Below are positions 2,333 to 20,243 of a stretch of DNA of 32,000 nt, piece by piece (the first letter of the stretch is position 1; each line of letters begins with the position of its first letter). The stretch is from positions 2,010,001-2,042,000 of the forward strand of contig NC_007517.1 of the NCBI RefSeq assembly GCF_000012925.1, in the 5' to 3' direction. A model generated the notes under the pieces. It worked only from the letters and a program-made list of their open reading frames with translations. It was not told where the DNA came from and searched no databases. The stretch is from Geobacter metallireducens GS-15. Its GTDB lineage: Bacteria; Desulfobacterota; Desulfuromonadia; Geobacterales; Geobacteraceae. Position numbers and translations under genes: made by a program.

Positions 2333-3400
2333 ATGGCACGACAACGAACTAGCCCAATGGAAGATATGATTTTGGTCGCCAGCAAACTTCCGTGGTGGGC
2401 GTGCCTGCTACTGGCGCTTGTGTCGTACGCCGTGCTTCACACGATGGCAATGCGCCCTGTAATGCCTGCTACGGTTGTTCCAGGCCAGATGGGCGACGCC
2501 GTAGCCCGGGGACTCATTACGACTCTGGCCATGTTCGGACAGTACGTGATGCCATTCGCTTTTGCACTGGCTGCTCTGTTGTCGGCCGTTACGTCGTCTC
2601 GTCAGAAAAAGCTTTACGATACCGTTGCAGGTCGTGGCGATGTTGCAGCTCTGAATGAAATGGGATGGGATGAGTTTGAAATGTTGGTAGGAGAGCATTT
2701 CCGCCGTCAAGGGTTCCAGGTGACCAGACAGGGAGGAAACGGTCCGGATGGTGGTGTTGATCTGATACTCAAGAATGGCGGCGAAACGTACCTTGTGCAG
2801 TGCAAGCAGTGGAAAGCTTACAAGGTCGGTGTGCAGCCAGTTCGTGAGCTATACGGCGTGATGGCATCGCGAGGTGCCGTTGGAGGTTATGTCGTCACTT
2901 CAGGCAAGTTTACCGACGAGGCGGTTGACTTCGCTCGCGGTTTGAATGTCGAATTGATTGATGGTCGCCAGCTTCGGCAGATTATCGATAATGCTCGTAG
3001 ACCATCGACAGATGTCGTTCGCCACGAGATATTTCCGAAAGCGGTTTCCTCTCCTAACTGTCCCAAGTGCGGAGCTGAAATGAAAAAGCGTGTAGCACGA
3101 CAGGGCAGTAATGCTGGCAGGGAATTCTGGGGGTGCTCAACCTATCCAAAGTGTAAGGGAATTGTCCCCGTTACAATAAATCAGGACACAGACCAGGCAA
3201 AGGTAACAATGCAACCGACTATCCCCCCAGTGGATGCCAGTAAGAAACTATGCCCTCAATGTGGTGAAGAATTAGTTTTGCGGCAATTCCAGAGTGGCCC
3301 TCGAATTGGACAGCAATTCTATGGCTGCCTCACATGCAAAAAAGGGTGGCCTGTCGACACGTTAGCGCAGCATGCAGCGCTTGCCGATGGAGGTAAATAG
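2333..3400 (+). CDS. membrane-anchored Mrr-cat type restriction endonuclease with two topoisomerase-type C4 zinc fingers
   Basis: GAGGAG RBS upstream of the ATG. Two N-terminal hydrophobic helices (LPWWACLLLALVSYAVL; LAMFGQYVMPFAFALAALLSAV). Mrr_cat core GGVDLILKNGGETYLVQCKQWK. CPKCGAEM...FWGCSTYPKCKG and CPQCGEEL...FYGCLTCKKGW zinc ribbons. Confidence 0.85.
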   Translation: MARQRTSPMEDMILVASKLPWWACLLLALVSYAVLHTMAMRPVMPATVVPGQMGDAVARGLITTLAMFGQYVMPFAFALAALLSAVTSSRQKKLYDTVAGRGDVAALNEMGWDEFEMLVGEHFRRQGFQVTRQGGNGPDGGVDLILKNGGETYLVQCKQWKAYKVGVQPVRELYGVMASRGAVGGYVVTSGKFTDEAVDFARGLNVELIDGRQLRQIIDNARRPSTDVVRHEIFPKAVSSPNCPKCGAEMKKRVARQGSNAGREFWGCSTYPKCKGIVPVTINQDTDQAKVTMQPTIPPVDASKKLCPQCGEELVLRQFQSGPRIGQQFYGCLTCKKGWPVDTLAQHAALADGGK

Positions 3401-3518: not shown

Positions 3519-4112
3519 ATGAACCGAGCCGATAAGGCAATAGTCCTATATCAGACTCCGGACGGGTCATCTTCTCTTCAAGTCCATCTCGACCATGACA
3601 CCGTCTGGCTTACACAGAAGCAGATGGCCGAACTGTTTGGAAAGGATGTCAGAACCGTCAACGAACACATCAGGAACATCTTCAGGGAAGGGGAGCTTGA
3701 TGATGCTTCAGTTATCCGGAAATTCCGGATAACTGCCTCAGACGGTAAAAGCTACGATACGGCCCACTACAACCTCGACGTGATAATTTCCGTAGGCTAC
3801 CGGGTGAAGTCACAGCAAGGGACCCGCTTCCGCCAATGGGCGACCAGGGTGCTGCATGACCATATCGTCAAGGGGTACACGCTCAACGAGCAGCGGCTGC
3901 GGGAGGAGAGCGCCAAGTTGCAGGCGATGCAGCAGACGGTGGCATTGCTGGCGCGGACCCTGACCAATCAGGAGCTTGTCAGCGATACCGGCCGGGACGT
4001 GCTGCGGGTCATCGACGATTACGCCTATGCGCTGGCAACCCTTGACCGTTACGACCACGGGACGCTGGCCATCGAAGGAATTACCCGCCAGGCCCAACAG
4101 AGAATTGTATAA
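3519..4112 (+). CDS. RhuM-family protein, C-terminally truncated
   Basis: WLTQKQMAELFGKDVRTVNEHIRNIF...YNLDVIISVGYRVKSQQGTRFRQWATRVL...IVKGYTLNEQRL is the RhuM N-terminal module. At 197 aa it is far shorter than the 300+ aa members I recall, and the stop arises right at a junction with unrelated PAS-coding sequence. Confidence 0.75.
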   Translation: MNRADKAIVLYQTPDGSSSLQVHLDHDTVWLTQKQMAELFGKDVRTVNEHIRNIFREGELDDASVIRKFRITASDGKSYDTAHYNLDVIISVGYRVKSQQGTRFRQWATRVLHDHIVKGYTLNEQRLREESAKLQAMQQTVALLARTLTNQELVSDTGRDVLRVIDDYAYALATLDRYDHGTLAIEGITRQAQQRIV

Positions 4113-4239
4113 AACAAAGGTGTACCTCTATCACAAGGATGGTCACAGAATCCCTGTATCAGTTCGTGTCACCCCCATGACCGATGAAGAAGGCAACATT
4201 ATCGGCAAAGTCGGATTGTTCAGCGACATCAGAAAGGAT
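4108..4239 (+). pseudogene. remnant of a PAS-domain sensor gene (C-terminal PAS strands only)
   Basis: Frame-1 text YKTKVYLYHKDGHRIPVSVRVTPMTDEEGNIIGKVGLFSDIRKD matches the end of a PAS fold (..rkDG..ipv..s..p..de.G.iig.vg...DI). There is no start codon or N-terminal part, and it begins exactly where RhuM ends. Confidence 0.4.
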
Positions 4240-4297
4240 AGCGGATCAACCTTTCGGGGAGTGCCCAACCGCGTGCCGATTACCCTGCAGAAGGAAT

Positions 4298-5650
4298 TTA
4301 TGCACTTACGGCACCTTGGTTCTCCTGCCGGACATCCCTGATCTGCCGTTTCCCGGTGCCGGTCGTGAACCAGCCGGCCCTGTCGAAGGTGATGCTCCCC
4401 AGCGTCAGCCCCCCCTGCCGGAACAGGGGATCGCTTGATTCGGCGCGCACAAGGGCGGCAACGGCCCCTCTGGCGACCTGTTCTTCCTGCCCCTCGCATG
4501 CCTGGAGACAGAGGTTGAGTTGATCCCGGCCGCCGTTATCGGCGATTTCGGCCGTAAAGTTCAGCAGTCCGGGAATCGGAAGCAACGCCTCGTCCAGAGT
4601 TGCCATGGCGATGCTTGCCCCATCCCTGAGCCTCACGGTCGCCCCGATTCGTCCCTGCACCCGCCCGAGACGTTTCAGCACCGTGCCGCAGGGGCAGGAT
4701 TCCGGCATCATCCTCGCCATATCCCCGGTCCGGTACCTCACGAGCGGCATCCCGCTTCGGGTGAGGGTCGTGAAGATCACTTCCCCGAACTCGCCATCGG
4801 CTACCGGCCGGCCTGTGGCCGGGTCGACGATTTCCGTGTACAGGTCGGCCTCGCGCAGATGGTAGCCGTCCCTTGCCTCACACTCCACGCCTCCCCCCAG
4901 CCCGGTTTCCGTCATGCCGTAGTGGGTGAAGACCCGGCAGCCCCAGTGCTGCTTCAGTTCCTCCACGATCGCCGTGGGCACGTAGTCCGTGGAAAGAAGG
5001 ACGCTCTCCACCCAGCCCCGTGGAATCGCCTCGCCACCCTCACCACGGGCCAGAGAAAGAATCTGGGTCGGTATCCCCACCAGGCAAGGGGAAGGGTGGC
5101 GCAGAATCTCCGCCCGTGCCGCTATCGGGTCCCGTACCGGTCCAAAGGCGACCGGCCTCACCCCCAGCCGTGCCAATCCCCGAGCCAGCAGATCACCAAC
5201 GCTGTCGGGTCGTTCGCCGGGCAGAAAGATGATGACGGTTGCCCCGGCAGCGACCATGGTCGCCATGCCGTGATGGAAAAAATCGACCGTCAGCTCCAGG
5301 TCTTCTGCCGTGAAAAATATCCGCTTTGCCTCGCCGCTGGTCCCTGAGGTTTGCAGGGTGACCACCCGTTCGATTTCGTCCTGGGAGGCGCAGAGCATCC
5401 GCATCCCCTGGGTTCGCACATCGTCCGGCGTCGTGAAGGGGAGGCGGCTGAATGCCTGCAGATCCTTCACGTCCCGACCGTCGATTTCGGCAAGAAGGTT
5501 CCGGTAGAAGGGGCTCTTCGTCCGGGCATAGGCGACCACCTCCCGCAGTTTTCGCACCTGATAGGCCTCGAGGTCGCTCCGCGTCAGTGCCTGCGTGCCG
5601 GGCAGAAGCAACTTGTCCCGTATCCACCCCTCCAGCGGCGTCCTATTCAT
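4298..5650 (-). CDS. adenylate-forming PaaK-like (phenylacetate-CoA-ligase family) enzyme, divergent paralog
   Basis: TSGTSGEAKRIFF (AMP motif), THYGMTETG, YRTGD. ATG at 5650 is preferred over 5671 because AAGGGG sits 8 nt upstream. It lies about 50 nt downstream of the C_GCAxxG_C_C gene on the same strand. Confidence 0.85.
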   Translation of the reverse strand: MNRTPLEGWIRDKLLLPGTQALTRSDLEAYQVRKLREVVAYARTKSPFYRNLLAEIDGRDVKDLQAFSRLPFTTPDDVRTQGMRMLCASQDEIERVVTLQTSGTSGEAKRIFFTAEDLELTVDFFHHGMATMVAAGATVIIFLPGERPDSVGDLLARGLARLGVRPVAFGPVRDPIAARAEILRHPSPCLVGIPTQILSLARGEGGEAIPRGWVESVLLSTDYVPTAIVEELKQHWGCRVFTHYGMTETGLGGGVECEARDGYHLREADLYTEIVDPATGRPVADGEFGEVIFTTLTRSGMPLVRYRTGDMARMMPESCPCGTVLKRLGRVQGRIGATVRLRDGASIAMATLDEALLPIPGLLNFTAEIADNGGRDQLNLCLQACEGQEEQVARGAVAALVRAESSDPLFRQGGLTLGSITFDRAGWFTTGTGKRQIRDVRQENQGAVSA

Positions 5651-5699: not shown

Positions 5700-6155
5700 T
5701 CATTGACCTGTACCGCCCACGGTCGCCAGTATCGACTGGAGTTTCTCCATGGTTGCCAGCAGCAGGTCCGAGCAGGCCCGCTTGTCGGGGCTCGCCTTCA
5801 GGATTTCATCGCAGTTGATCCCGCCGTACTCTTTTTCCGCCCTGACCGAGAACCAGTCCCACAATTCAGCCAGCAGCAGGGGAAACTCCGAGTCCTGCAT
5901 CTCCCTCTCCCTCGAACCATCCAGTGCCAGTGACAACGCACATGACGCACCGGTGAGCACCCCGCAGGTGACGCCGGCGTAAAAACCGTTGCAGAGGGCC
6001 GCCATCGACCTGACCAGGTCCGGGTTGTCCCGACCCAGGTCGCGCAACACCAGCTTGACCACGATCTGGCTGCAACAGAGCCCTTGATGCTTCATGAGCA
6101 AAATGTCGAGATAGGGGCCATCGAAGGTGATCGTGTTCACTGACTGGTCGTTCAT
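5700..6155 (-). CDS. C_GCAxxG_C_C family protein
   Basis: LCCSQ...ALCNGFYAGVTCGVLTGASCAL...INCDEIL...RACSDL fits the C_GCAxxG_C_C cysteine pattern. ATG at 6155 has GGAG 9 nt upstream; the longer 186-aa version adds a non-homologous N-terminal extension. Confidence 0.8.
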   Translation of the reverse strand: MNDQSVNTITFDGPYLDILLMKHQGLCCSQIVVKLVLRDLGRDNPDLVRSMAALCNGFYAGVTCGVLTGASCALSLALDGSREREMQDSEFPLLLAELWDWFSVRAEKEYGGINCDEILKASPDKRACSDLLLATMEKLQSILATVGGTGQ

Positions 6156-6331
6156 GGTGTTGTTCTCCAGGTGAATCTTTTTATGGCCTGTTGTCATTCT
6201 TGGGCAGACAAGGCACCTTACAGATATTTGCACACTAAGCGAGATTTTTTTGTTTGACAAGTAAAATAGTAATGTAGTACTAATTTACGCAAATAAGCGT
6301 GAGCTTATGGTGGAGTCGTAGTAACAGGGTG

Positions 6332-6347
6332 CGGCAGATGCTTTGCA
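6332..6347 (+). promoter_or_regulatory. candidate sigma-54 (-24/-12) promoter
   Basis: cGGCAGatgctTTGCA: the GG (6333-34) and GC (6345-46) have the canonical 12-nt register of TGGCAC-N5-TTGCW. The predicted start near 6358 coincides with the beginning of riboswitch copy 1. The -24 hexamer matches only 4/6. Confidence 0.25.
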
Positions 6348-6363
6348 CCGCGAAAATTTAAAA

Positions 6364-6517
6364 CCGTCTCCGAGCTGCGGCGCCTAAAGGGAACATCCCC
6401 AAGGCGGTCCGGCCTATGGGTATCGCTGGAAACGGCGTTGCCTTCCTTATGCAAAGGGGACCCAACGGTGCGGAGGTGTGTCCGCGACGTTCAGGGGCCT
6501 TTCTATCCAGGAGAGCG
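6364..6517 (+). promoter_or_regulatory. Moco/Tuco (molybdenum/tungsten cofactor) riboswitch-like aptamer, copy 1
   Basis: Closing helix TCTCC(6367-71)/GGAGA(6510-14). Hairpin CGCTG-GAAA-CGGCG (6424-6437) has a GNRA tetraloop. CCTAAAG (6383-89) plus TATGG (6415-19) resemble the 11-nt tetraloop receptor. Further hairpin at 6463-6490. It lies upstream of pterin-cofactor enzyme and moeA genes. Confidence 0.65.
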
Positions 6518-6532
6518 CCCCTTTTGTTTTTT
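6493..6532 (+). terminator. intrinsic terminator of riboswitch copy 1
   Basis: AGGGGC-CTTTCT [atcca] GGAGAG-c-GCCCCT stem followed by TTTTGTTTTTT. Confidence 0.6.
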
Positions 6533-6590
6533 CCCTCCGAGGCTCTAGTGCGGGCTGTCGGCGGAAAGCGGGTCTTGAAAAAATTTAAAA

Positions 6591-6743
6591 CCGTCTCCGA
6601 GCCGCGGCGCCTAAAGGGAACATCCCCATGGCGGTCCGGCCTATGGGTATCGCTGGAAACGGCGTTGCCTTCCTTATGCAAAGGGGACCCAGCGACGCGG
6701 AGGTATGTCCGCGACGTTCAGGGGCCTTTCTATCCAGAGAGCG
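6591..6743 (+). promoter_or_regulatory. Moco/Tuco riboswitch-like aptamer, copy 2
   Basis: Same elements as copy 1, shifted by 227 nt. In the 3' hairpin a T-G wobble of copy 1 becomes a C-G pair, so the structure is preserved. Confidence 0.65.
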
Positions 6744-6759
6744 CCCCTGTTGTTTTTTT
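6720..6759 (+). terminator. intrinsic terminator of riboswitch copy 2
   Basis: AGGGGCCTTTCT [atcc] AGAGAGcGCCCCT stem followed by GTTGTTTTTTT. Confidence 0.6.
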
Positions 6760-6834
6760 GCGGGATAGACCGCGTACAACGTGTCCGGTGTGATGATGCC
6801 GGATTACGACAACAAGTGGAGAGAGGAGGAGGAT

Positions 6835-7017
6835 ATGAAATACGAAGAGGTCGGATGTTATCTGGAAATCAATCTGGCAACGGGAACTATCGAACGGGTG
6901 GCGCTGGAACCCGAGGTAATGAGAGAGCATCTGGGACGTCCCGGGGCCTGCATCGGGGAAGCGTGCGAGGGATTCTGCCAGCATTCGCTACAGACCTGCC
7001 TCCGCATAGAAAATTAG
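6835..7017 (+). pseudogene. 5' remnant of an AOR-family gene (60-aa ORF; could alternatively act as a leader peptide)
   Basis: MKYEEVGCYLEINLATGTIERVALEPEVMREHLG parallels the N-terminus of the next gene, MRYAEAGYYLEVDLAKGNIERVATDPRLMELHLG. It has its own GGAGGAGGA RBS. Similarity ends after about 34 codons, followed by unrelated sequence and a stop. Confidence 0.5.
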
Positions 7018-7050
7018 ACACAGGGTGTACATCGGGAAAAAGGAGGAAAA

Positions 7051-9021
7051 ATGAGATACGCAGAGGCAGGATATTATCTGGAAGTCGACCTGGCGAAGGG
7101 GAACATCGAACGGGTCGCAACCGATCCCAGGCTGATGGAGCTCCATCTCGGGGGGTTGGGAACAAGCGTCAAGCTCCACTGGGACAGGGTACCACCGGAA
7201 ACCAGGGCATTCGATCCCGAAAATCTGCTGGTATTCAGTACCGGCCTGCTGAACGGCACGCCGGTGTTCAGCGCCAACCGCACCGTTGTCTCTTTCATTT
7301 CGCCCCAATCGGGCACACTGGCCTATCCGATGATGGGGGGCTTTTTCGCGGCCGAGCTGAAGTATGCCGGCTACGATAAGATCATCTTCAAGAACAAGTC
7401 GCCCGACTGGGTCTACCTGTACGTCTCCAATAACAAGGTGGAGCTGCGTGATGCGTCGCATCTGAAGGGGAGGGGGGCGGTTGAGACCCAGGAACTCATC
7501 CGGAAGGAGCTGAACGATCCGAAAGCCCAGGTGGCTGCCATCGGTATCGCCGGCGAGAACCGGGTCTTTACGGCTTCCATTGAGCAATCCCGCTCAAGCG
7601 CCAGCCGACTCGGCGGCGGCGCGATCATGGGCGACAAGAAGATCAAGGCCGTGGCTGTCCGCGGCACCGGCGATGTCTTCCTTGCCCGGCCGGAAGAGTT
7701 CATGAAAGAGTTGCAGGGGGTGACGGATTATATCAAGTACCGGTGGGCCAACCCCATTAAGGACGTCATGACCATCCTTTCCGGCATCGGGTCGCCCCAG
7801 GAGATGCTCCATACCGATGAAAAATGGCATACGGAGAACTTCGCCTGGGGCAATGCCCGGACCCGGAGAAGGGACTTCTGGACCGAAGAGATCGACGAGT
7901 CATGGTCAAAGTCACAGCATGGCGCAGTAAAGCGTCTGATCAGCTGTTACAACTGTCCGACCCATTGCGGGGCGCTTATTTCCCACAAGGATACCCCACG
8001 GTATATGGCGAAATGCTTCGGCAAGCTCACCTATGCCATGGCGGCTTATGTGGATGACCTTGATTTCTCCTGGAAGATCCTCCAGCGCGCCACCGAGTAC
8101 GGGGTTGATTCCTTCTCGACGCCCCAGATTCTTGCCTTTGCCGTTGAGCTCTATGAAGCCGGCATTCTCACTGACAAGGACTTCAAGGGGTGTCCATCCG
8201 ACAAGGAAGGGAGATTCTTCTGGCTCCTCGACCGGGTCGCACGTCGTGAGGGGATTGGCGATATCCTGGCCGACGGCGTCTATTTCGCAGCCCGCAAGAT
8301 CGGCAACGGTGCGGAAGCCTTCGATCACAACACCATCAAGAAGCACGAGCAGCTCCCGGTCAAGCTCGGGACCCTGGATCCGCTCTATTTCCTCATGTAT
8401 TCCACCAACGAGAAGATCAGCATCACCCAGATGGAAGGACAGTGGCCCCAATCGGCCTTCCCAACCATGGAGCAGCGGGAGGAATTCGTCCGCGACTGGC
8501 CCCAGATTCCCGACGAAAAGTTCAAGCAGATCGTGCTGGACTGGGAACTGAGGGGGGAGAAGTCGATTCCCTACTTCCCGACACCGGACATGTGCTCTGA
8601 AATCGTGGACTGGATGGAGATGATGCACAACATCGATGACGCCGTGGGGATGTGCTGCGGCATGTCGTCCTTCTGCCTGAAGCCGCCCTATCACATCCAC
8701 AACTACCCGAAAATAATCTCCGCGGCTACCGGCCTGGATCTGGACGAGTCAGGGCTGAAGCAGATTGCCAACAGGAGCCGGAACCTGCACCGAGCCTACA
8801 ACAACAGGCTGGGTATCAGGAGGGTTGACGAAAAGCCGCCCGCTGACCACTGGAAGAAACGCTTCCCCGAACTGGAAGAGCAGCTTCTTTCCACCTATTA
8901 CACGTACAAGGGATGGAACCACGACGGCATTCCCACACGGGAAAAGCTGGAAGAACTGGACCTGGGCTATGTCGCCGACGACCTGGAAAAGAGGGGGATC
9001 TTGAAAAATGGCCAAAATTAA
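7051..9021 (+). CDS. tungsten-pterin aldehyde:ferredoxin oxidoreductase family protein, BamB-like subfamily
   Basis: AAGGAGGA RBS. AOR N-terminal domain. [4Fe-4S] motif CYNCPTHCG. 656 aa. The N-terminus MRYAE.GY.LEVDL.KG.IERVATDP and blocks such as EKWHTENFAWGNARTRR match what I remember of Geobacter BamB (class II benzoyl-CoA reductase active subunit); unverified. Confidence 0.9.
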   Translation: MRYAEAGYYLEVDLAKGNIERVATDPRLMELHLGGLGTSVKLHWDRVPPETRAFDPENLLVFSTGLLNGTPVFSANRTVVSFISPQSGTLAYPMMGGFFAAELKYAGYDKIIFKNKSPDWVYLYVSNNKVELRDASHLKGRGAVETQELIRKELNDPKAQVAAIGIAGENRVFTASIEQSRSSASRLGGGAIMGDKKIKAVAVRGTGDVFLARPEEFMKELQGVTDYIKYRWANPIKDVMTILSGIGSPQEMLHTDEKWHTENFAWGNARTRRRDFWTEEIDESWSKSQHGAVKRLISCYNCPTHCGALISHKDTPRYMAKCFGKLTYAMAAYVDDLDFSWKILQRATEYGVDSFSTPQILAFAVELYEAGILTDKDFKGCPSDKEGRFFWLLDRVARREGIGDILADGVYFAARKIGNGAEAFDHNTIKKHEQLPVKLGTLDPLYFLMYSTNEKISITQMEGQWPQSAFPTMEQREEFVRDWPQIPDEKFKQIVLDWELRGEKSIPYFPTPDMCSEIVDWMEMMHNIDDAVGMCCGMSSFCLKPPYHIHNYPKIISAATGLDLDESGLKQIANRSRNLHRAYNNRLGIRRVDEKPPADHWKKRFPELEEQLLSTYYTYKGWNHDGIPTREKLEELDLGYVADDLEKRGILKNGQN

Positions 9022-9544
9022 ACGGAAAGTCAGGACGATCACGGTTGATGCCGACAAGTGCAACGGCTGCCGGACCTGCGAAATCATGTGCTCCGCCTTC
9101 CACGCGGTTCCGCCGTACAGCAGCAACAACCCGGCACGGTCGCGCATCCAGGTCATCACCAACCGGCTCGAGGACATCTGGATGCCGGTCTTTGCCGGCG
9201 AGTACACCGAATCCGAGTGCATGGGGCGGAACAAGTACATCATCGACGGCAAGGAATACAACGAGTGCGACTCCTGCCGTGCCGCCTGCCCCTCACGGGA
9301 TCTGTTCAAGGAACCGGATTCGGGTCTGCCCCTGAAATGCGACATGTGCGACGGCGAAGATGAGCCGGTATGTGTCAAGTGGTGCCTGGTCGATGCCCTA
9401 GTCTACGAGGAGCGGGAAGAGGAAGTGGAAGAGAAGGATATACAAACAACGGTGACCGAGATGGAGGTCGGTCTGGAATCGCTGGTGCGAAAACATGGTT
9501 TCGACAAGGTAATGGATACGGTTGCCCGAATGTCGAAGAAGTGA
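9008..9544 (+). CDS. multi-[4Fe-4S] ferredoxin-like protein, BamC-like partner of the AOR
   Basis: 14-nt overlap with the AOR stop. CNGCRTCEIMC, CDSCRAACP and CDMCDG...CVKWC cluster motifs. Confidence 0.85.
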   Translation: MAKIKRKVRTITVDADKCNGCRTCEIMCSAFHAVPPYSSNNPARSRIQVITNRLEDIWMPVFAGEYTESECMGRNKYIIDGKEYNECDSCRAACPSRDLFKEPDSGLPLKCDMCDGEDEPVCVKWCLVDALVYEEREEEVEEKDIQTTVTEMEVGLESLVRKHGFDKVMDTVARMSKK

Positions 9545-9653: not shown

Positions 9654-10958
9654 ATGCCAGGCTCAGAGGAAACCCTCCGGATTATTCTTGATAACATAAC
9701 TCCGCTCGGAGTGGAGCGTGTCGACCTGCAGTCCGCCCTGGGGAGGGTCCTGGCCAGGGATGTGGTGGCACCATGGGATTTGCCGCTTTTCGACAATTCG
9801 GCGAGGGACGGATTCGCCCTGAGAAGTGCGGACTGCACGGGCGAGGGGACCACCCTACGGATTACCGGCTTTATTCCGGCCGGATGCAATGTGTCGGAGC
9901 CGGTTCTGGGGGGGTGCGCCGTCCGGATCATGACCGGTGCACCTATCCCCCACAACTGCGATGCGGTGGTGCCGGGGGAGGATACCCTGGAGACAGATGG
10001 CCAGGTGACGGTCATGGCGCCGGTCCGTCGCCGGCAGTATATCCGCTTCCGGGGTGAGGACCTGACAGGCGGTGACCTGGTGCTGACGGAGGGGACGGTC
10101 ATTCAGGCACAGGAAATAGGCTTGCTGGCCTCATTTGGCCAAGCGGTGGTGCCGGTCTACCGGAAGGCGCGGGTGGCGGTGCTCTCCACCGGCGATGAGT
10201 TGATCGAACTGGGAGAGCAGCCGTCAAACGGACGCATCATCAACAGCAATGCCCAGTATCTGGCTGCGGCTCTCAGGGAGATCGGCGCCGAGCCGATTCT
10301 CCTCTGCATCGGTCGTGACAACCGGGAAAGCCTGAAAGAGCAGCTTCAGACGGGACTGAAGGCCGATGCGCTGATCACTACGGCCGGCGTCTCGGCAGGA
10401 GCCCGGGACCTCGTGCGGGATGTGCTGGTTGAGGTGGGGGTCAGGCAGATGCTCGGAAAGATTGAGATGAAGTCGGGCGGACCCAAGGCCTTCGGCATGA
10501 AGGACGGGATCCCGGTCTTCTCCCTTCCCGGCAATCCGCTGTCGACCATGGTCACGTTCGAGGAATTCGTCAGACCGGGGCTGCTCAGGCTGATGGGGCA
10601 TCGCCGGACGGTCAGGCCGAACCTCAAGGCACGGCTGCGGGAAGATATCCGCAAGGAGCCCGGCCGGGTCCATTGCCAGTCGGTCCGGGTAGAGGCGGAG
10701 AACGGCCGCTACATGGCCACCACGGTCGGAAACCACAAGGCGTGCCGGCTGAGTACCATCCAACGGGCCAATGCCATTGTCATCCTCCCCGAAGGACCGT
10801 CGGTGGTGGCGGCAGGGGAAGAGGTGGAGGTACATCTGCTGCGCGGTGACCTGGTCCTGCTGGAAGAACCGAACCTCACTGCCGGTTGCGTACCTGATGA
10901 CCGTGTGTCGGAAGAGGGGGAGACCTTCGAGAGAAGGGTGCGGGTGGCAACCCGTTAG
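9654..10958 (+). CDS. moeA: molybdopterin molybdenum/tungsten transferase MoeA
   Basis: LPLFDNSARDGFAL, IMTGAPIP, VLSTGDEL and TTAGVSAG are the standard MoeA domain order. 434 aa. Confidence 0.9.
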   Translation: MPGSEETLRIILDNITPLGVERVDLQSALGRVLARDVVAPWDLPLFDNSARDGFALRSADCTGEGTTLRITGFIPAGCNVSEPVLGGCAVRIMTGAPIPHNCDAVVPGEDTLETDGQVTVMAPVRRRQYIRFRGEDLTGGDLVLTEGTVIQAQEIGLLASFGQAVVPVYRKARVAVLSTGDELIELGEQPSNGRIINSNAQYLAAALREIGAEPILLCIGRDNRESLKEQLQTGLKADALITTAGVSAGARDLVRDVLVEVGVRQMLGKIEMKSGGPKAFGMKDGIPVFSLPGNPLSTMVTFEEFVRPGLLRLMGHRRTVRPNLKARLREDIRKEPGRVHCQSVRVEAENGRYMATTVGNHKACRLSTIQRANAIVILPEGPSVVAAGEEVEVHLLRGDLVLLEEPNLTAGCVPDDRVSEEGETFERRVRVATR

Positions 10959-14895: not shown

Positions 14896-17088
14896 ATGAA
14901 ACGGAGAACGTTTTTACAGCTTGGTACAGTAATAGCTGCCGGCGCCGTACTGGATGGATGCCGGTCAAAAAATGAGCAGCTCATCCCCTATCTCATTCCG
15001 CCGGATGAGGGGATAACTCCCGGCAAAGGTACTTATTATGCCAGCTCCTGCAATGCATGTCCTGCCGGCTGCGGCATCCTAGTCCGAGTGTCCGAGGGAC
15101 GGGCAAAGAAGATTGAGGGAAACCCGGAACATCCCATCAATAGAGGGAAACTCTGCGCCCGGGGGCAGGCCGTTGTTCAGGAACTTTACCATCCCGACCG
15201 CGTGCCTCATCCCCTCAAACGGAATGGCCCCCGTGGTTCCGGTGCCTTCACGCGGATTTCCTGGCAAGAGGGTATTGGGCTGCTCACGGATAGGCTCAAA
15301 GCTTTGCAGCGGGAACAGAGCACTAATGGCCTGGCTCTGCTGACGCCTCATTTGCGGGGTACCCTGGCGGAACTCACGGGTCGCTTCATGCGCACGTTCG
15401 GCTCGACCAACCACGTCTCCTATGAGTTGCTCACCCCCGACTTGCTTCGGATTGCTGCCCGTCGTAGCTTCGGGCAGCCTACCCTTCCCTATTACGACAT
15501 CGCCGAAACGCGCTATCTGCTCAGTTTCGGGGCTGATTTTGTGGACTCTCACCTGTCGCCGGTCAAGTATGGTTCCGCCTTTGGTGAGATGCGCCAGGGC
15601 CGTGACACGGTTCGCGGGCATTTCACCTATGTGGGGGGGCGCATGTCACTGACTGCCGCCTCGGCCGACCGCTGGATGCCTGCCAAGCCGGGGAGCGAAG
15701 GAACCCTGGCCCTTGGCATTGCACGCCTGATTCTGGCCGAGTCGCTTTACGACAGCGGAGCACTCGCGATGAACGGGCTTGAGGCAAAGAAACTGCTGGC
15801 CGCGCTGGACAGATACGATCTCCCCCGAGTGGCGCAGCTCTCCGGTCTGCCGCAAGGAGCGATCGCTGAGGTGGCACGGGAGTTTGCCTCGACCCGTCCC
15901 GCACTCGCTCTGGCCGGGGAGATGGTTGCCTTTCAGAGCAACGGCCCTGAATCGGTCCGTGCGGTCCACCTGCTCAATCTCCTGGTGGGAAGCCTGAATC
16001 GGCCGGGTGGGATCTACCCCGATGCAGGGTCCCCATCCGGACCGGAAAATTCCTTTGCCGAACTCATCGCTCTTATCGAGACGATGCGCGGCGGCCACGT
16101 GAAGGTGGCCATGATTCATGGCGATCCGCTCTATTCCGTTCCTCCGGCGACTGGGTTTCACGACGCACTGGCAAAGGTTCCGTTCATCGTCAGCTTTTCC
16201 TCGCTGCTCGACGATACCGCCCTGCACGCGGACTTGGTCCTTCCGGACCACGCCGCCCTGGAAAGCTGGGGAGACGTGATACCGGTCGCCGGCACCCGGG
16301 AACCGCTGGTGGGGCTTATGCAGCCGGTTGTGGAGCCTTTGTTCGATACCCGCCAGTTCCCCGAAGTGTTGCTGGCTACTGCCCATGAGCTGGGAGGCCG
16401 GATGGCTGCAGCATTACCGGACGAGTCGTACCTGGAGTTGCTGAAGGGAGCGGTCAGGAAGCAAGCCGGATTTGGGGCCGGCGTGGATTTCGAAGCGGCG
16501 TGGGTCGACCTGCTTCAGCACGGAGGGCTCTTTAAAACCAAGAGTGTCCAGCCCACCGGTTATCGATGGTCCTCGGACGCACCACCGCCATTGCCCGAGG
16601 ACCCGGACTTTGCCGGGGACCAGAAGACGTACCCATTCCATCTGATTGCCTACCCTGCCACCGCCTTTTATGACGGCCGCGGTGCACCGTATCCCTGGCT
16701 GCAGCAACTCCCGGACCCGATGACCACCGTCGTTTGGGGAAGTTGGGTGGAGATCAACCCCGAGACCGCAGCCGAGCACGGGATCGGCTTTGGCGATCTG
16801 GTGGAGGTCTCATCGCCCCAGGGCACACTCCGTCTGCCGGCCGTCGTTTATCCCGGAATCCGTCCGGACATGGTGGCGATCCCCTTGGGGCAGGGGCATC
16901 GGGGGATGGGACGCTATGCCCAGGGGCAAGGGGTAAATCCTCTCGCGCTGGTGGCACGGCAAGGGACGAAACAGCAGCCTGCCTGGAATGCTACCCGGGT
17001 GCGGATAACCAGAATCTCAGGGAATGGGGAACTGGTTACGGCAGGACATCCCCAGGGAAGCCTCCGGAGCGAGTTGGTCGAGATATAG
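14896..17088 (+). CDS. Tat-exported molybdopterin-oxidoreductase-family subunit (ActB1-like) with intact FS0 Cys motif
   Basis: Twin-arginine signal MKRRTFLQLG ending in the lipobox-like LDGC. CNACPAGCG-x27-C [4Fe-4S] motif. 730 aa with MopB fold text. Confidence 0.85.
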   Translation: MKRRTFLQLGTVIAAGAVLDGCRSKNEQLIPYLIPPDEGITPGKGTYYASSCNACPAGCGILVRVSEGRAKKIEGNPEHPINRGKLCARGQAVVQELYHPDRVPHPLKRNGPRGSGAFTRISWQEGIGLLTDRLKALQREQSTNGLALLTPHLRGTLAELTGRFMRTFGSTNHVSYELLTPDLLRIAARRSFGQPTLPYYDIAETRYLLSFGADFVDSHLSPVKYGSAFGEMRQGRDTVRGHFTYVGGRMSLTAASADRWMPAKPGSEGTLALGIARLILAESLYDSGALAMNGLEAKKLLAALDRYDLPRVAQLSGLPQGAIAEVAREFASTRPALALAGEMVAFQSNGPESVRAVHLLNLLVGSLNRPGGIYPDAGSPSGPENSFAELIALIETMRGGHVKVAMIHGDPLYSVPPATGFHDALAKVPFIVSFSSLLDDTALHADLVLPDHAALESWGDVIPVAGTREPLVGLMQPVVEPLFDTRQFPEVLLATAHELGGRMAAALPDESYLELLKGAVRKQAGFGAGVDFEAAWVDLLQHGGLFKTKSVQPTGYRWSSDAPPPLPEDPDFAGDQKTYPFHLIAYPATAFYDGRGAPYPWLQQLPDPMTTVVWGSWVEINPETAAEHGIGFGDLVEVSSPQGTLRLPAVVYPGIRPDMVAIPLGQGHRGMGRYAQGQGVNPLALVARQGTKQQPAWNATRVRITRISGNGELVTAGHPQGSLRSELVEI

Positions 17089-17125
17089 GGAAGCCGCGCA
17101 AGCGGTCATCGGGATTGAGTCGATT

Positions 17126-17839
17126 ATGGAAACAATGACGAGTCAGTACAGATGGGGGATGGTTGTCGACCTTGATCGGTGCACCGGCTGCGGCGCTTGC
17201 GTTGTTGCCTGTCAGGCGGAGAACAACGTGGCCATCTGCGGCAAGAAGGAGATATCCGAAGGACGCAACATGCACTGGTTACGCATCGAGCGGTTCTGGG
17301 TGGGACAGTATCCGGACGTGCGGGCGCGCTTTCTCCCGGTACTCTGTCAGCACTGTCATGACGCCCCCTGTGAGCCGGTCTGCCCGGTTTATGCCAGCTA
17401 CCACAACCCCGACGGTCTTAATGGGCAGGTGTACAACCGCTGCGTCGGCACCAGGTACTGCGGTAATAACTGCCCCTATGCCGTAAGAGTCTTCAACTTC
17501 TACAACCACGAATGGCCCAACCCCCTCGATAATCAACTTTCTCCGGACATGACCGTGCGTACCCGGGGAGTGATGGAAAAATGCACTTTCTGCATCCAGC
17601 GCATCCGAAGGGCCAAGGAAGATGCCAAGTCCGAAAATCGCACCATTCGTGACGGAGAGATACAACCGGCCTGCGCCCAGACCTGTCCAACCGACGCTCT
17701 GGTGTTCGGGAACATGGCCGACCCTCGGAGCCGGGTCGCCATCCTTTCCCGCAGCCCCAGGCGCTTCCGGCTGCTGGAGCATCTGGGCACCCACCCCTCG
17801 ATTTGCTATCTCAAGGGAGGAGGACGCGAGCATGTCTGA
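17126..17839 (+). CDS. 4x[Fe-S] ferredoxin subunit (ActB2/PsrB/NrfC-like)
   Basis: CTGCGACVVAC, CQHCHDAPCEPVCP, CVGTRYCGNNCP and CTFC...CAQTCP. The track ORF was trimmed to ATG 17126, after the upstream stop at 17088. Confidence 0.85.
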   Translation: METMTSQYRWGMVVDLDRCTGCGACVVACQAENNVAICGKKEISEGRNMHWLRIERFWVGQYPDVRARFLPVLCQHCHDAPCEPVCPVYASYHNPDGLNGQVYNRCVGTRYCGNNCPYAVRVFNFYNHEWPNPLDNQLSPDMTVRTRGVMEKCTFCIQRIRRAKEDAKSENRTIRDGEIQPACAQTCPTDALVFGNMADPRSRVAILSRSPRRFRLLEHLGTHPSICYLKGGGREHV

Positions 17840-19202
17840 GCCGACACTTCCTGCCGCCAAGAACTCCAGCCAGTTGAATGACGAGATGTTGTCCTCCCTG
17901 CGGACCCCCACCTGGAGCTGGTACGCGCTCGCGCTATTCCTCGGGGCCGTGGTGGCGTGGGGACTCTACGCCTTTGGTTACATGCTGACGACCGACATGA
18001 GTTGCACCGGCCTGAACAGGCCGGTCATGTGGGGGGTGTACATCGTCAACTTTGTCTTCTGGATCGGGCTTTCCCACTCGGGAACCATGGTTTCTGCAAT
18101 CCTGCGCCTTTCCAGAGCCAACTGGCGGCGACCGATCCTGCGCGCCGCCGAGGCAATGACCGTCTTTACCGTTGCCGTTGGCGGCCTTTTCCCGCTCATC
18201 CACCTGGGCCGCAACTGGGTTTTTTTCTACCTCATCCCCTATCCCAACCAGCGCGGACTGTGGCCGAACTTCCGCTCGGCGCTCCTCTGGGACGCTACGG
18301 CAATCTTCACGTACATCATCGGGAGCAGTCTCTTCCTCTATCTCGGAATGCTTCCCGATCTCGCAGTAGCCCGGGACCGCTCGAGTGGTTGGAGATTCAA
18401 GCTGTACTCAGTTTTGGCAATGGGGTGGCGAGGGACGGCGCGGGAATGGGCAATCTTTCATCAGGCATCCACCCTGATGGCAGCGTTGATCATCCCGGTG
18501 GCCGTTTCGGTGCACTCCATCGTCGCCTGGGACTTCGCCGTTACCGTTATTCCTGGCTGGCATAGCACCATTTTCCCGCCATACTTCGTCATAGGCGCCA
18601 TCCATTCGGGAATTGCCGCCGTCATTACCCTGATGATCATCATTCGCCGGGTGTTCCACCTGGAGGATTACCTGACGCCGCTTCACTTCGACAACATGGG
18701 AAAACTCCTCCTGGTCATCGCACTCCTCTGGTCCTATGCCTATTTCGTCGAGGTCCAGACCACTTGGTACGCCCATGAACCGATTGAGTGGGAAGTCTTT
18801 AGTTTCATGGCCGACAAATATGCTTTCCTGCTTCTTTTAATGATTTTCGCCAACTCCGTTCTCCCGATCGTGGCACTCTGCTTCAAGCGGTTGCGTCGCT
18901 CAATCGGTGTGATGCTGGTGGTTTCGGTGCTGATCAATGTCGGCATGTTCATCGAGCGCTTCCTGATCATCGTGCCGTCACTCTCCCACAAAAACATGCC
19001 GTTCGTCTGGGGAACCTACCGCCCCACCTGGGTGGAACTCTCTGTTACCGCAGGCGCCTTTGCAGGCTTCGCCCTGATGTATACCCTCTTTGCCAAGTGT
19101 TTCCCGATGGTGTCGGTAACCGATGTGCGGGAGCTGGAGGCACAAAAGAGCGTGGTCACGCTCGGCCGAACCCGGCTTCAGTCGATCGCGGAAAAGGAGT
19201 AG
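17832..19202 (+). CDS. actC: NrfD/PsrC-type polytopic quinone-interacting membrane subunit (ActC-like)
   Basis: The ATG overlaps the upstream stop (ATGTCTGA). Many hydrophobic helices. NrfD-like text HLGRNWVFFYLIPYPN. Confidence 0.85.
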   Translation: MSEPTLPAAKNSSQLNDEMLSSLRTPTWSWYALALFLGAVVAWGLYAFGYMLTTDMSCTGLNRPVMWGVYIVNFVFWIGLSHSGTMVSAILRLSRANWRRPILRAAEAMTVFTVAVGGLFPLIHLGRNWVFFYLIPYPNQRGLWPNFRSALLWDATAIFTYIIGSSLFLYLGMLPDLAVARDRSSGWRFKLYSVLAMGWRGTAREWAIFHQASTLMAALIIPVAVSVHSIVAWDFAVTVIPGWHSTIFPPYFVIGAIHSGIAAVITLMIIIRRVFHLEDYLTPLHFDNMGKLLLVIALLWSYAYFVEVQTTWYAHEPIEWEVFSFMADKYAFLLLLMIFANSVLPIVALCFKRLRRSIGVMLVVSVLINVGMFIERFLIIVPSLSHKNMPFVWGTYRPTWVELSVTAGAFAGFALMYTLFAKCFPMVSVTDVRELEAQKSVVTLGRTRLQSIAEKE

Positions 19203-19206
19203 TCGA

Positions 19207-19791
19207 ATGGAAGTCCTCGGGATTTTCAGCGACAAGGAGAGCGCAGGGGTAGCCGTTGAGCACCTGATCAAAGAAGGGTTCGTCGAAAGGCAAATCACCT
19301 CTCTCACGTCGGTTGCCTATCCTGACGGCGTGCTTGTGAGGACAGAACAGCGTACCTGGTTCCGTTGGTTCACCCTGGCCTGCGGCATAGCCGGCGCCGG
19401 CGCCGGTTTCCTTCTTGCGGCAGGCACTGCTTGGCTCTATCCGGTTAAGACCGGCGACAAGCCCATTATCGCCTTTTACCCGACCGGCATCGTCACCTAC
19501 GAGCTCACCATGCTTTTTGCACTTGCAGGAACCATCATCGGGATGTTTCTGGAAATGGGCCTCCCTTCGTTACGAAAACGCGTTTACGATCCTCTCATAG
19601 CCGAGGGGTACATTGGCATCAGCGTTTCCATACATTCCGGAGGCGTGGCCGTAGCCTGCGAAGCGGACGTGTCGCCCCGCGAGTGTATTGGCACGGTTGC
19701 GGCTCTTCCCTCCGACGAGCAGGTGAGTCGGGCTGAGGAACTCATGAAGGCGGCCGGAGCCGTCAGGATCATTGCCGAGGATAGGATATGA
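19207..19791 (+). CDS. actD: DUF3341/ActD-like membrane subunit
   Basis: AAAAGGAG RBS. MEVLGIFSDKESAGVAVEHL N-terminus followed by two TM helices. Confidence 0.8.
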   Translation: MEVLGIFSDKESAGVAVEHLIKEGFVERQITSLTSVAYPDGVLVRTEQRTWFRWFTLACGIAGAGAGFLLAAGTAWLYPVKTGDKPIIAFYPTGIVTYELTMLFALAGTIIGMFLEMGLPSLRKRVYDPLIAEGYIGISVSIHSGGVAVACEADVSPRECIGTVAALPSDEQVSRAEELMKAAGAVRIIAEDRI

Positions 19792-20243
19792 GACGTGCGG
19801 TGAAACTGGCCATTCTGACGGCAACACCGGTGCTGATGGCAGCAATCTGGATGGATGAGCAACCCGCCTACAAACCATACCAGGCACCGGTCCTGGCTCC
19901 GCCCAAGGGTGCTGTTCCCGTCACCGGCAAGGAGAACGTGTCGCAAGAGTTCGTAGAGAAAAATCCCGTTGCGCCGACCGTGGAATCCCTGGAGCAAGGA
20001 GAAACGCTTTTCGCCATTAACTGTTCCCTGTGCCATGGCCTAAGCTCGGCGGAGCGCGGCCCGGTCGGCAAGAAACTCACTCCCCACCCACCAGGACTCG
20101 ATCACGACATGGTGCAGGGATTGTCCGACTCAGATATCTTCAGAGCCATTACCTCGGGTTTCGGCCGAATGCCACCCTTCCAGGGCAAACTCACGGTTCA
20201 GGACCGCTGGAACCTGATCAATTACCTGCGAACGCGCAGATAG
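19788..20243 (+). CDS. actE: monoheme cytochrome c (ActE-like)
   Basis: ATGA overlap with actD. N-terminal helix. Single CSLCHG haem motif with distal MPPF. Confidence 0.8.
   Translation: MRRAVKLAILTATPVLMAAIWMDEQPAYKPYQAPVLAPPKGAVPVTGKENVSQEFVEKNPVAPTVESLEQGETLFAINCSLCHGLSSAERGPVGKKLTPHPPGLDHDMVQGLSDSDIFRAITSGFGRMPPFQGKLTVQDRWNLINYLRTRR

Follow-up and report, generated by a model that had tools for sequence, protein, structure and literature searches.

Tandem Moco RNAs were described by Regulski et al. (2008; PMC2408646), with Geobacter metallireducens as one of the two named examples, and the supplement to that paper lists Gme-1-4 from 2016356 and Gme-1-3 from 2016583 on the + strand of NC_007517.1, in the context RNA->RNA->COG2414->HycB. 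In the same work, P3-less Moco RNAs were linked to the tungsten cofactor by gene correlation only, and for Syntrophomonas wolfei the first two units of the array were assigned putative terminators and a more 'digital' Tuco response was proposed. In the later survey of Sherlock et al. (2022; PMC9481103), Moco tandems number 13 doublets and 2 triplets, and Wco tandems are listed separately. In the tandem TPP riboswitch of Bacillus anthracis tenA (Welz and Breaker 2007), the independent action of the two riboswitches sharpens the response.

The stretch analysed here, referred to as the window, comprises 32,000 nucleotides of G. metallireducens GS-15 (NC_007517.1, positions 2,010,001 to 2,042,000). 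The listed starts of Gme-1-4 and Gme-1-3 are 227 nt apart, equal to the period of the repeat in the window, and the published flanks, which are machine-read rows with dropouts, align to window positions 6530-6690 (140 of 150 letters) and 6758-6916 (145 of 150) and give a closer fit to the window than to the nearest other assembly. This combination of spacing and flank alignment identifies the tandem in the window as the Gme-1-4/Gme-1-3 locus, or that of a near-identical strain. The tandem riboswitch at the bamB-2 locus has accordingly been known since 2008, and the view of an earlier, sequence-only reading of this DNA that tandem Moco units are unusual does not hold, given the tandems described in 2008, with G. 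metallireducens among those named, and those counted in 2022. As a discovery the locus therefore offers little; the additions made here are modest and consist of the P3 status of the units, the predicted switching helices, the identity of the operon, the evidence for concerted evolution and the variation between two and three units among relatives.

Two P3-less units in the leader of the bamB-2 operon

The whole window was scanned with Rfam 15 at curated thresholds, which returned exactly two matches, both to RF01055 (the Moco RNA motif, gathering score 36 bits) and both full length, covering model positions 1-135 in the covariance-model alignment. This was the check that the sequence-only reading had proposed for its two units, and both matches, at 63.6 and 68.1 bits, lie above the gathering score. 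A permissive Rfam rescan of 5900-7100 added chance-level matches only (BjrC68 at 16-17 bits; mir-630), and a tRNA scan of the window found none. The elements assigned to each unit are as follows.

6356..6475, + strand: unit 1 aptamer, P3-less Moco/Wco type (RF01055, 63.6 bits, E = 3e-13 in the whole-window scan; MFE fold)
6366-6371 with 6456-6461, + strand: unit 1 P1, GUCUCC with GGGGAC (RF01055 consensus alignment)
6383-6389 with 6400-6404, + strand: unit 1 tetraloop receptor, CCUAAAG with CAAGG (RF01055 consensus alignment)
6424-6437, + strand: unit 1 P4, the CGCUG-GAAA-CGGCG hairpin (RF01055 consensus alignment)
6455..6502, + strand: unit 1 predicted antiterminator (MFE fold of the transcript cut before the terminator 3' strand)
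6464-6491, + strand: unit 1 hairpin X (MFE fold)
6493..6532, + strand: unit 1 predicted intrinsic terminator (fold; stem 6493-6504 with 6510-6522, C6516 bulged)
6533..6579, + strand: unique inter-unit spacer, outside the repeat; loosely like the spacer of the Geobacter hydrogenophilus locus (L004), with a common CCNCCGAGGC core
6583..6702, + strand: unit 2 aptamer, P3-less (RF01055, 68.1 bits, E = 1.4e-14 in the whole-window scan; fold z-score -3.0)
6593-6598 with 6683-6688, + strand: unit 2 P1 (RF01055 alignment and fold)
6627-6631, + strand: unit 2 receptor 3' half, CAUGG (RF01055 alignment)
6682..6729, + strand: unit 2 predicted antiterminator, hairpin X lengthened by a helix between the P1 3' strand and the terminator 5' strand
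6691-6718, + strand: unit 2 hairpin X (MFE fold)
6719..6759, + strand: unit 2 predicted intrinsic terminator (fold; stem 6719-6731 with 6736-6749, C6742 bulged)

Whether P3 is present, which had been left undecided by eye, is settled by the alignment to RF01055: in both aptamers a single U replaces model positions 60-75 and P3 is absent, which places both units in the Tuco/Wco subtype. The gene context agrees with this assignment, with an AOR-family BamB paralogue and MoeA downstream. The conserved junction sequences CCGAGC, GCC...GGG and AAAGG are present along with P1, P2 and P4 in the alignment to the RF01055 consensus, and independent MFE folds reproduce these three helices in both units. 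Each unit combines a GNRA tetraloop with its receptor, the GAAA tetraloops lying at 6429-6432 in unit 1 and 6656-6659 in unit 2, and the A variant of the unit 1 receptor (CAAGG) recurs in unit 2 of the related locus L008 and in the more distant L062.

The earlier assignment of these elements by eye was accurate for some and not for others. The CGCUG-GAAA-CGGCG hairpin was correctly recognised, at 6424-6437. For the receptor, proposed as CCUAAAG...UAUGG, the CCUAAAG half stands while the UAUGG half does not, the 3' half being CAAGG in unit 1 (6400-6404) and CAUGG in unit 2; the junction that stands in for P3 accounts for the UAUGG at 6414-6418. The proposed closing helix, TCTCC/GGAGA, was mistaken, as the P1 of the aptamer is formed by GUCUCC at 6366-6371 and GGGGAC at 6456-6461. 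The GGAGA in question lies in the 3' strand of the terminator, and its pairing with TCTCC was seen in a suboptimal fold only, where it spans 5 bp in unit 1 but, owing to the deletion of G6510, 4 bp in unit 2.

Both aptamers are complete, belong to the same class and lie on the same strand of one leader with no gene between them: the mechanical ORF list holds, between the units, only overlapping ORFs inside the repeat, and the gene calls of public assemblies place no gene there. These observations support the reading of the bamB-2 leader as two complete P3-less Moco-family riboswitches of the Tuco/Wco subtype in series.

The repeat finder reports positions 6353-6510 and 6580-6737 as a direct repeat with 96% identity and a 227-nt period, which continues after a 1-nt indel as 6511-6532 and 6737-6758, bearing out the tandem repeat and the period read by eye. 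The count of about 8 differences made at that time is also correct, as pairwise alignment of unit 1 with unit 2 gives exactly 8 within the repeat (T6376/C, A6402/T, A6465/G, GT6468-6469/AC, G6478/A, G6510/deleted and T6523/G); the window units are 93-96% identical to each other. In the same alignment, the homology of the units ends at their U-runs, and the spacer of about 45 nt that follows unit 1 (6533-6579) does not recur after unit 2. Wherever a substitution between the units falls in a helix, pairing is kept, the changes being U-G to C-G in P2 and hairpin X and A-U to G-U; the one in hairpin X, U6469-G in unit 1 and C-G in unit 2, is the structure-preserving change in the 3' hairpin that had been noticed from the letters. 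The aptamer cores differ at two positions only, the U-G to C-G change in P2 and A/U in the receptor. A two-input logic gate, in which the aptamers would sense different ligands such as Moco and Wco, has parallels among the tandems of other riboswitch classes (PMC9481103), but with cores so similar and P3 absent from both units it appears very unlikely at this locus.

In the MFE folds, the predicted order in both units is P1/P2/P4, then hairpin X, then a bulged terminator of 12-13 bp with a U-run. The terminator of unit 1 is predicted to have the loop AUCCA and the tail UUUGUUUUUU (6523-6532), that of unit 2 a U-rich tail at 6750-6759, and the computed hairpin energies are -18.3 and -20.8 kcal/mol, respectively. 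The GC stem followed by a U run that had been read in each unit is thus recovered by the predicted folds (6493-6522 then 6523-6532, and 6719-6749 then 6750-6759). A consensus terminator scan of 5900-7300 flagged neither hairpin, a negative that is uninformative because the bulged C splits the stem. Each aptamer is therefore predicted to be followed by an antiterminator and a terminator with a U-run of its own, i.e. by a separate expression platform.

The genes and candidate control elements around the pair are as follows.

6254..6288, + strand: putative promoter region, placed by inference only, with a TTGACA -35 box at 6254-6259
6269-6288: 20-bp palindrome GTAATGTAGTAC/GTACTAATTTAC, candidate operator (palindrome search)
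6835..7017, + strand: conserved 60-aa ORF, first regulated gene (called as a gene in public assemblies)
7051..9021, + strand: bamB-2 (Gmet_1802), AOR-family tungsten enzyme (Pfam AFOR_N, AFOR_C)
9008..9544, + strand: bamC-2 (Gmet_1803), 4Fe-4S ferredoxin-like subunit
9654..10958, + strand: moeA-3 (Gmet_1804), which inserts Mo/W into molybdopterin (Pfam MoeA_N, MoCF_biosynth, MoeA_C)

This context confirms the earlier placement of the units upstream of an AOR-family tungsten enzyme. The bamB-2 product matches BamB of PDB 4z3w with 1017 bits and, judged by sequence, is a paralogue of BamB, the active-site subunit of class II benzoyl-CoA reductase; genes for a DUF7479 protein, a methyltransferase and a radical-SAM protein lie 3' of moeA-3. 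Gmet_1802 is described in PMC1924859 and Gmet_1804 in PMC2700814, and on benzoate the transcripts of bamB-2, bamC-2 and moeA-3 are reported there to increase 23.6-, 15.7- and 4.5-fold (PMC1924859; PMC2700814). A consensus sigma-70 promoter scan of 5900-7300 found nothing; the block formed by TTGACA and the palindrome is kept upstream of the array in L004, L007 and L008, and is a candidate promoter with operator and possibly the site of the reported benzoate induction.

The 60-aa ORF has a strong ribosome-binding site of its own, and its N-terminal 40 aa share 53% identity with the N-terminus of BamB-2 (E = 7e-13), with a corresponding DNA repeat between 6835-6921 and the start of bamB-2 at 7051-7137 (74% identical). 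Its tail is Cys-rich (EACxGFCQHSLxxCLRI), and it has equal length in L002, L004, L007 and L008, with pN/pS of 0.2-0.36. From these sequence features it looks like a maintained small gene rather than a decaying fragment, and the G. bemidjiensis genome paper records a similar small gene adjoining bamB-2.

Elsewhere in the window, the DNA upstream of the riboswitch locus encodes a restriction endonuclease of Mrr type that has zinc ribbons (2333-3400) and a RhuM-family protein (3519-4112), consistent with published work that places the bamB-2 cluster on a species-specific island. At 14896-20243, a gene for a molybdopterin oxidoreductase precedes 4Fe-4S, NrfD-like, ActD-like and cytochrome c genes, together forming an alternative-complex-III-like module with no Moco riboswitch ahead of it.

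The locus makes a good experimental case, in that the organism can be cultured and its paralogue of tungsten-dependent benzoyl-CoA reductase is induced 23.6-fold on benzoate; the two near-identical Wco-type switches ahead of bamB-2 offer a direct test bed for ligand identity, for the proposed OFF direction and for the 'digital' response.

Predicted switching helices and direction of control

Nascent transcripts of 13 homologous units were folded, each cut at the terminator loop, before the terminator 3' strand. In all 13 the best fold was the antiterminator, at 2-6.5 kcal/mol below the P1 state, the difference being 2.0-2.2 kcal/mol for unit 1 and the energies for unit 2 being -58.5 kcal/mol for the antiterminator and -56.5 for the P1 state. 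Beyond hairpin X, the unit 1 antiterminator pairs CCC (6461-6463) with GGG (6494-6496) and AGGGG (6455-6459) with CCUUU (6498-6502). As it thereby takes up both the P1 3' strand and the terminator 5' strand, it would exclude P1 and the terminator alike. The consensus fold of the 13 units contains a compensatory pair in hairpin X (GC in eight, AU in three and CG in two) and further compensatory changes at the tip of P2. The antiterminator extension is invariant across the 13 units, with 97% of cells paired, so that covariation speaks neither for nor against it; in L006, one pair of the extension is A:C.

Constrained folding of the full-length units gave no competitive antiterminator, nor any pairing that ties the formation of P1 to the disruption of the terminator. 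Of the full-length folds, the one with the terminator lies 8-14 kcal/mol below the best terminator-free fold found, and the terminator is so favoured that a decision to read through would have to be kinetic. The full-length MFE folds of both units hold P1 and the terminator together, and the MFE fold of the whole 410-nt leader includes some cross-unit pairings.

The most likely interpretation is that each unit is a transcriptional OFF switch of standard design. Without ligand, the P1 3' strand (AGGGG-A-CCC) would pair with the terminator 5' strand (GGG-G-CCUUU) and extend hairpin X, and with the antiterminator formed RNA polymerase would read through. Cofactor binding would lock P1 and leave the terminator 5' strand free, whereupon the terminator would form and transcription end. 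RNA polymerase would have to pass both such checkpoints, so that expression would approximate the product of two read-through probabilities, and two units would act more tightly and steeply than one, the arrangement termed 'pseudo-cooperative'. The expectation that two units in series would respond more steeply comes from analogous tandems, those of TPP riboswitches among them; we infer, as parts of the same model, which ligand is bound, that control is of the OFF type, that the two units act independently and what shape the dose response takes.

Repression by the cofactor of an enzyme that consumes it is counter-intuitive, which counts against the OFF model. The opposite arrangement, of ON switches in which cofactor binding blocks termination and the apo-enzyme is produced only in the presence of tungsten cofactor, would be physiologically sensible for such an enzyme, but is at odds with the competition between the P1 3' strand and the terminator 5' strand, by which a ligand-stabilised P1 should free the terminator; further, none of the constrained folds coupled P1 formation to terminator disruption, and P1 and terminator occur together in the full-length MFE fold. 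Control by ON switches is thus considered improbable, and the OFF design is retained. A plausible rationale for OFF control is that the operon also holds the insertase, so that the switches could form a loop matching the supply of apo-enzyme and insertase to free cofactor.

Variation and homogenisation of the array among relatives

Eighty loci with BamB-like proteins of at least 70% identity were fetched, of which 77 were scanned (L081-L083 were left out), and three contigs encoding the identical AOR protein were added to these 77, with Rfam applied at gathering thresholds. The single-versus-double comparison of orthologous loci suggested by the sequence-only reading was thereby made, and gave two to three units in five related genomes and a single unit in L062. 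The loci carrying units are as follows.

L002, 2301-2710: two units (NCBI assembly GCA_018531165.1, encoding the identical AOR protein)
L004: two units (G. hydrogenophilus)
L006: two units (Desulfuromonadaceae MAG)
L008: two units
L007, 2328-2950: three units, upstream of the bamB-2 orthologue (uncultured Geobacter)
L062, 678-800: single P3-less Moco RNA, 67.7 bits, about 1.4 kb upstream of a BamB-like gene (Dehalococcoidales MAG)
L001, 2533-2720, and L003, 54-240: single chimeric unit 1/unit 2, in contigs encoding the identical AOR protein

Tandem units are confined to the closest clade among the scanned loci, in which every close relative that has the riboswitch carries two or three units, and of the 77 related loci scanned, L062 alone has a riboswitch while lying outside the Geobacter clade. 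The remaining scanned loci had no unit, including L005 at 89% protein identity, and in L005 and L009-L011 no degenerate riboswitch came up when Rfam was run permissively. At one of the scanned loci, L033 of delta proteobacterium NaphS2, a group II intron domain (RF02005, 123.6 bits) was found at 4206-4437, downstream of the BamB-like gene.

In the relatives, the units of one genome are 84-90% identical to each other. The two units of the window have the AAAATTTGAAACC-like leader of the gene-proximal unit in L004 and L008 and resemble that unit, not the distal type. In L002, both units carry a derived CAGGG and unit 1 has a hairpin X of the unit 2 type, i.e. homogenisation in L002 took a different course from that in the window. 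In L007, the spacer was copied along with the third unit, the second spacer being a near-copy of the first, which indicates that unequal crossing-over also occurs, and recently. Because the array is clade-wide, the spacer of the window unrepeated, both leaders of gene-proximal type and L002 separately homogenised, gene conversion in an old tandem array appears to be the best explanation for the near-identity of the two units, in preference to a fresh duplication. Of the two origins offered by the sequence-only reading, recent duplication or concerted evolution, comparison with relatives consequently favours the second and not the first.

Contigs L001 and L003 bear on the number of units as well as their origin. 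Their chimeras have different junctions, located in identical stretches of 31 and 62 nt, for which collapse of a k=31 assembly graph is a likelier cause than deletion. The single units are thus more likely the product of collapsed short-read assembly, with a real one-period deletion allele as the alternative. A metagenome scan with a 24-nt core gave one match, at a contig end and hence uninformative as to copy number.

A recent neutral tandem duplication, in which just one of the units is of consequence and its neighbour is carried along until it decays, would account for the 96% identity of the units and would gain from the public contigs that show one unit beside an identical AOR protein (L001 and L003), were their chimeric junctions not as expected from k=31 graph collapse. 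A simple copy would, moreover, have taken the whole 227-nt period, yet the spacer is unrepeated; two to three units are kept in five related genomes, the helix substitutions between the window units preserve structure, and both units score well above the RF01055 gathering score. Recent duplication is accordingly regarded as unlikely. The disagreement of short-read contigs on unit number could also be taken to mean that the repeat is itself an artefact of assembly. However, two units are present in the finished GS-15 genome as published in 2008, and a two-unit or tandem form recurs in L002, an independent assembly, in L004 with diverged units and in three MAGs, making an artefact exceedingly improbable.

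The model as a whole, of tandem Tuco/Wco OFF switches that would act pseudo-cooperatively and have been homogenised by gene conversion, is given high confidence. The comparative pattern on which its last part draws is a small but clean case of a cis-regulatory RNA under concerted evolution. A more speculative extension, offered tentatively and perhaps wrong, is that the array is a dynamic homogenised repeat in which conversion and crossing-over vary the number of units (1, 2 or 3) and so tune shut-off within a supply-matching loop. If this were true, unit number would tune, between close strains, the shut-off by free cofactor of a benzoate-induced tungsten-enzyme operon, and OFF logic on an operon of BamB-2 and MoeA-3 would read free Wco as saturation of the apo-enzyme.

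Comparison with known tandem and single riboswitches

The closest published counterpart, Gme-1-4/Gme-1-3, is the same locus, for which Regulski et al. (2008) note the tandem arrangement only and do not describe how nearly identical the units are, which helices switch or how relatives compare. The Moco riboswitch of E. coli moaA shares with the window units the RF01055 family and the GAAA tetraloop with its receptor, and is an OFF switch; however, it has P3, is a single unit, acts by sequestration of the ribosome-binding site and responds to Moco and not the tungsten form. In B. anthracis tenA, two complete riboswitches of the same class likewise stand in series with a terminator each, but the aptamer class and ligand are different, and that system is experimentally validated whereas the window pair is known from sequence.

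Nearer in kind is the S. wolfei triple, which like the window has P3-less units in series in a single leader (PMC2408646). It differs in having three units, ahead of an operon for MPT synthesis and transport in a member of another phylum, as compared with the two units ahead of bamB-2, bamC-2 and moeA-3 in the window. The tandem Moco and Wco RNAs of Sherlock et al. (2022) are described as pseudo-cooperative with multiple expression platforms, and in this the window pair is predicted to be alike (PMC9481103). The Wco tandems of that survey lie upstream of genes unrelated to cofactor synthesis, whereas the operon in the window joins a tungsten enzyme with moeA.
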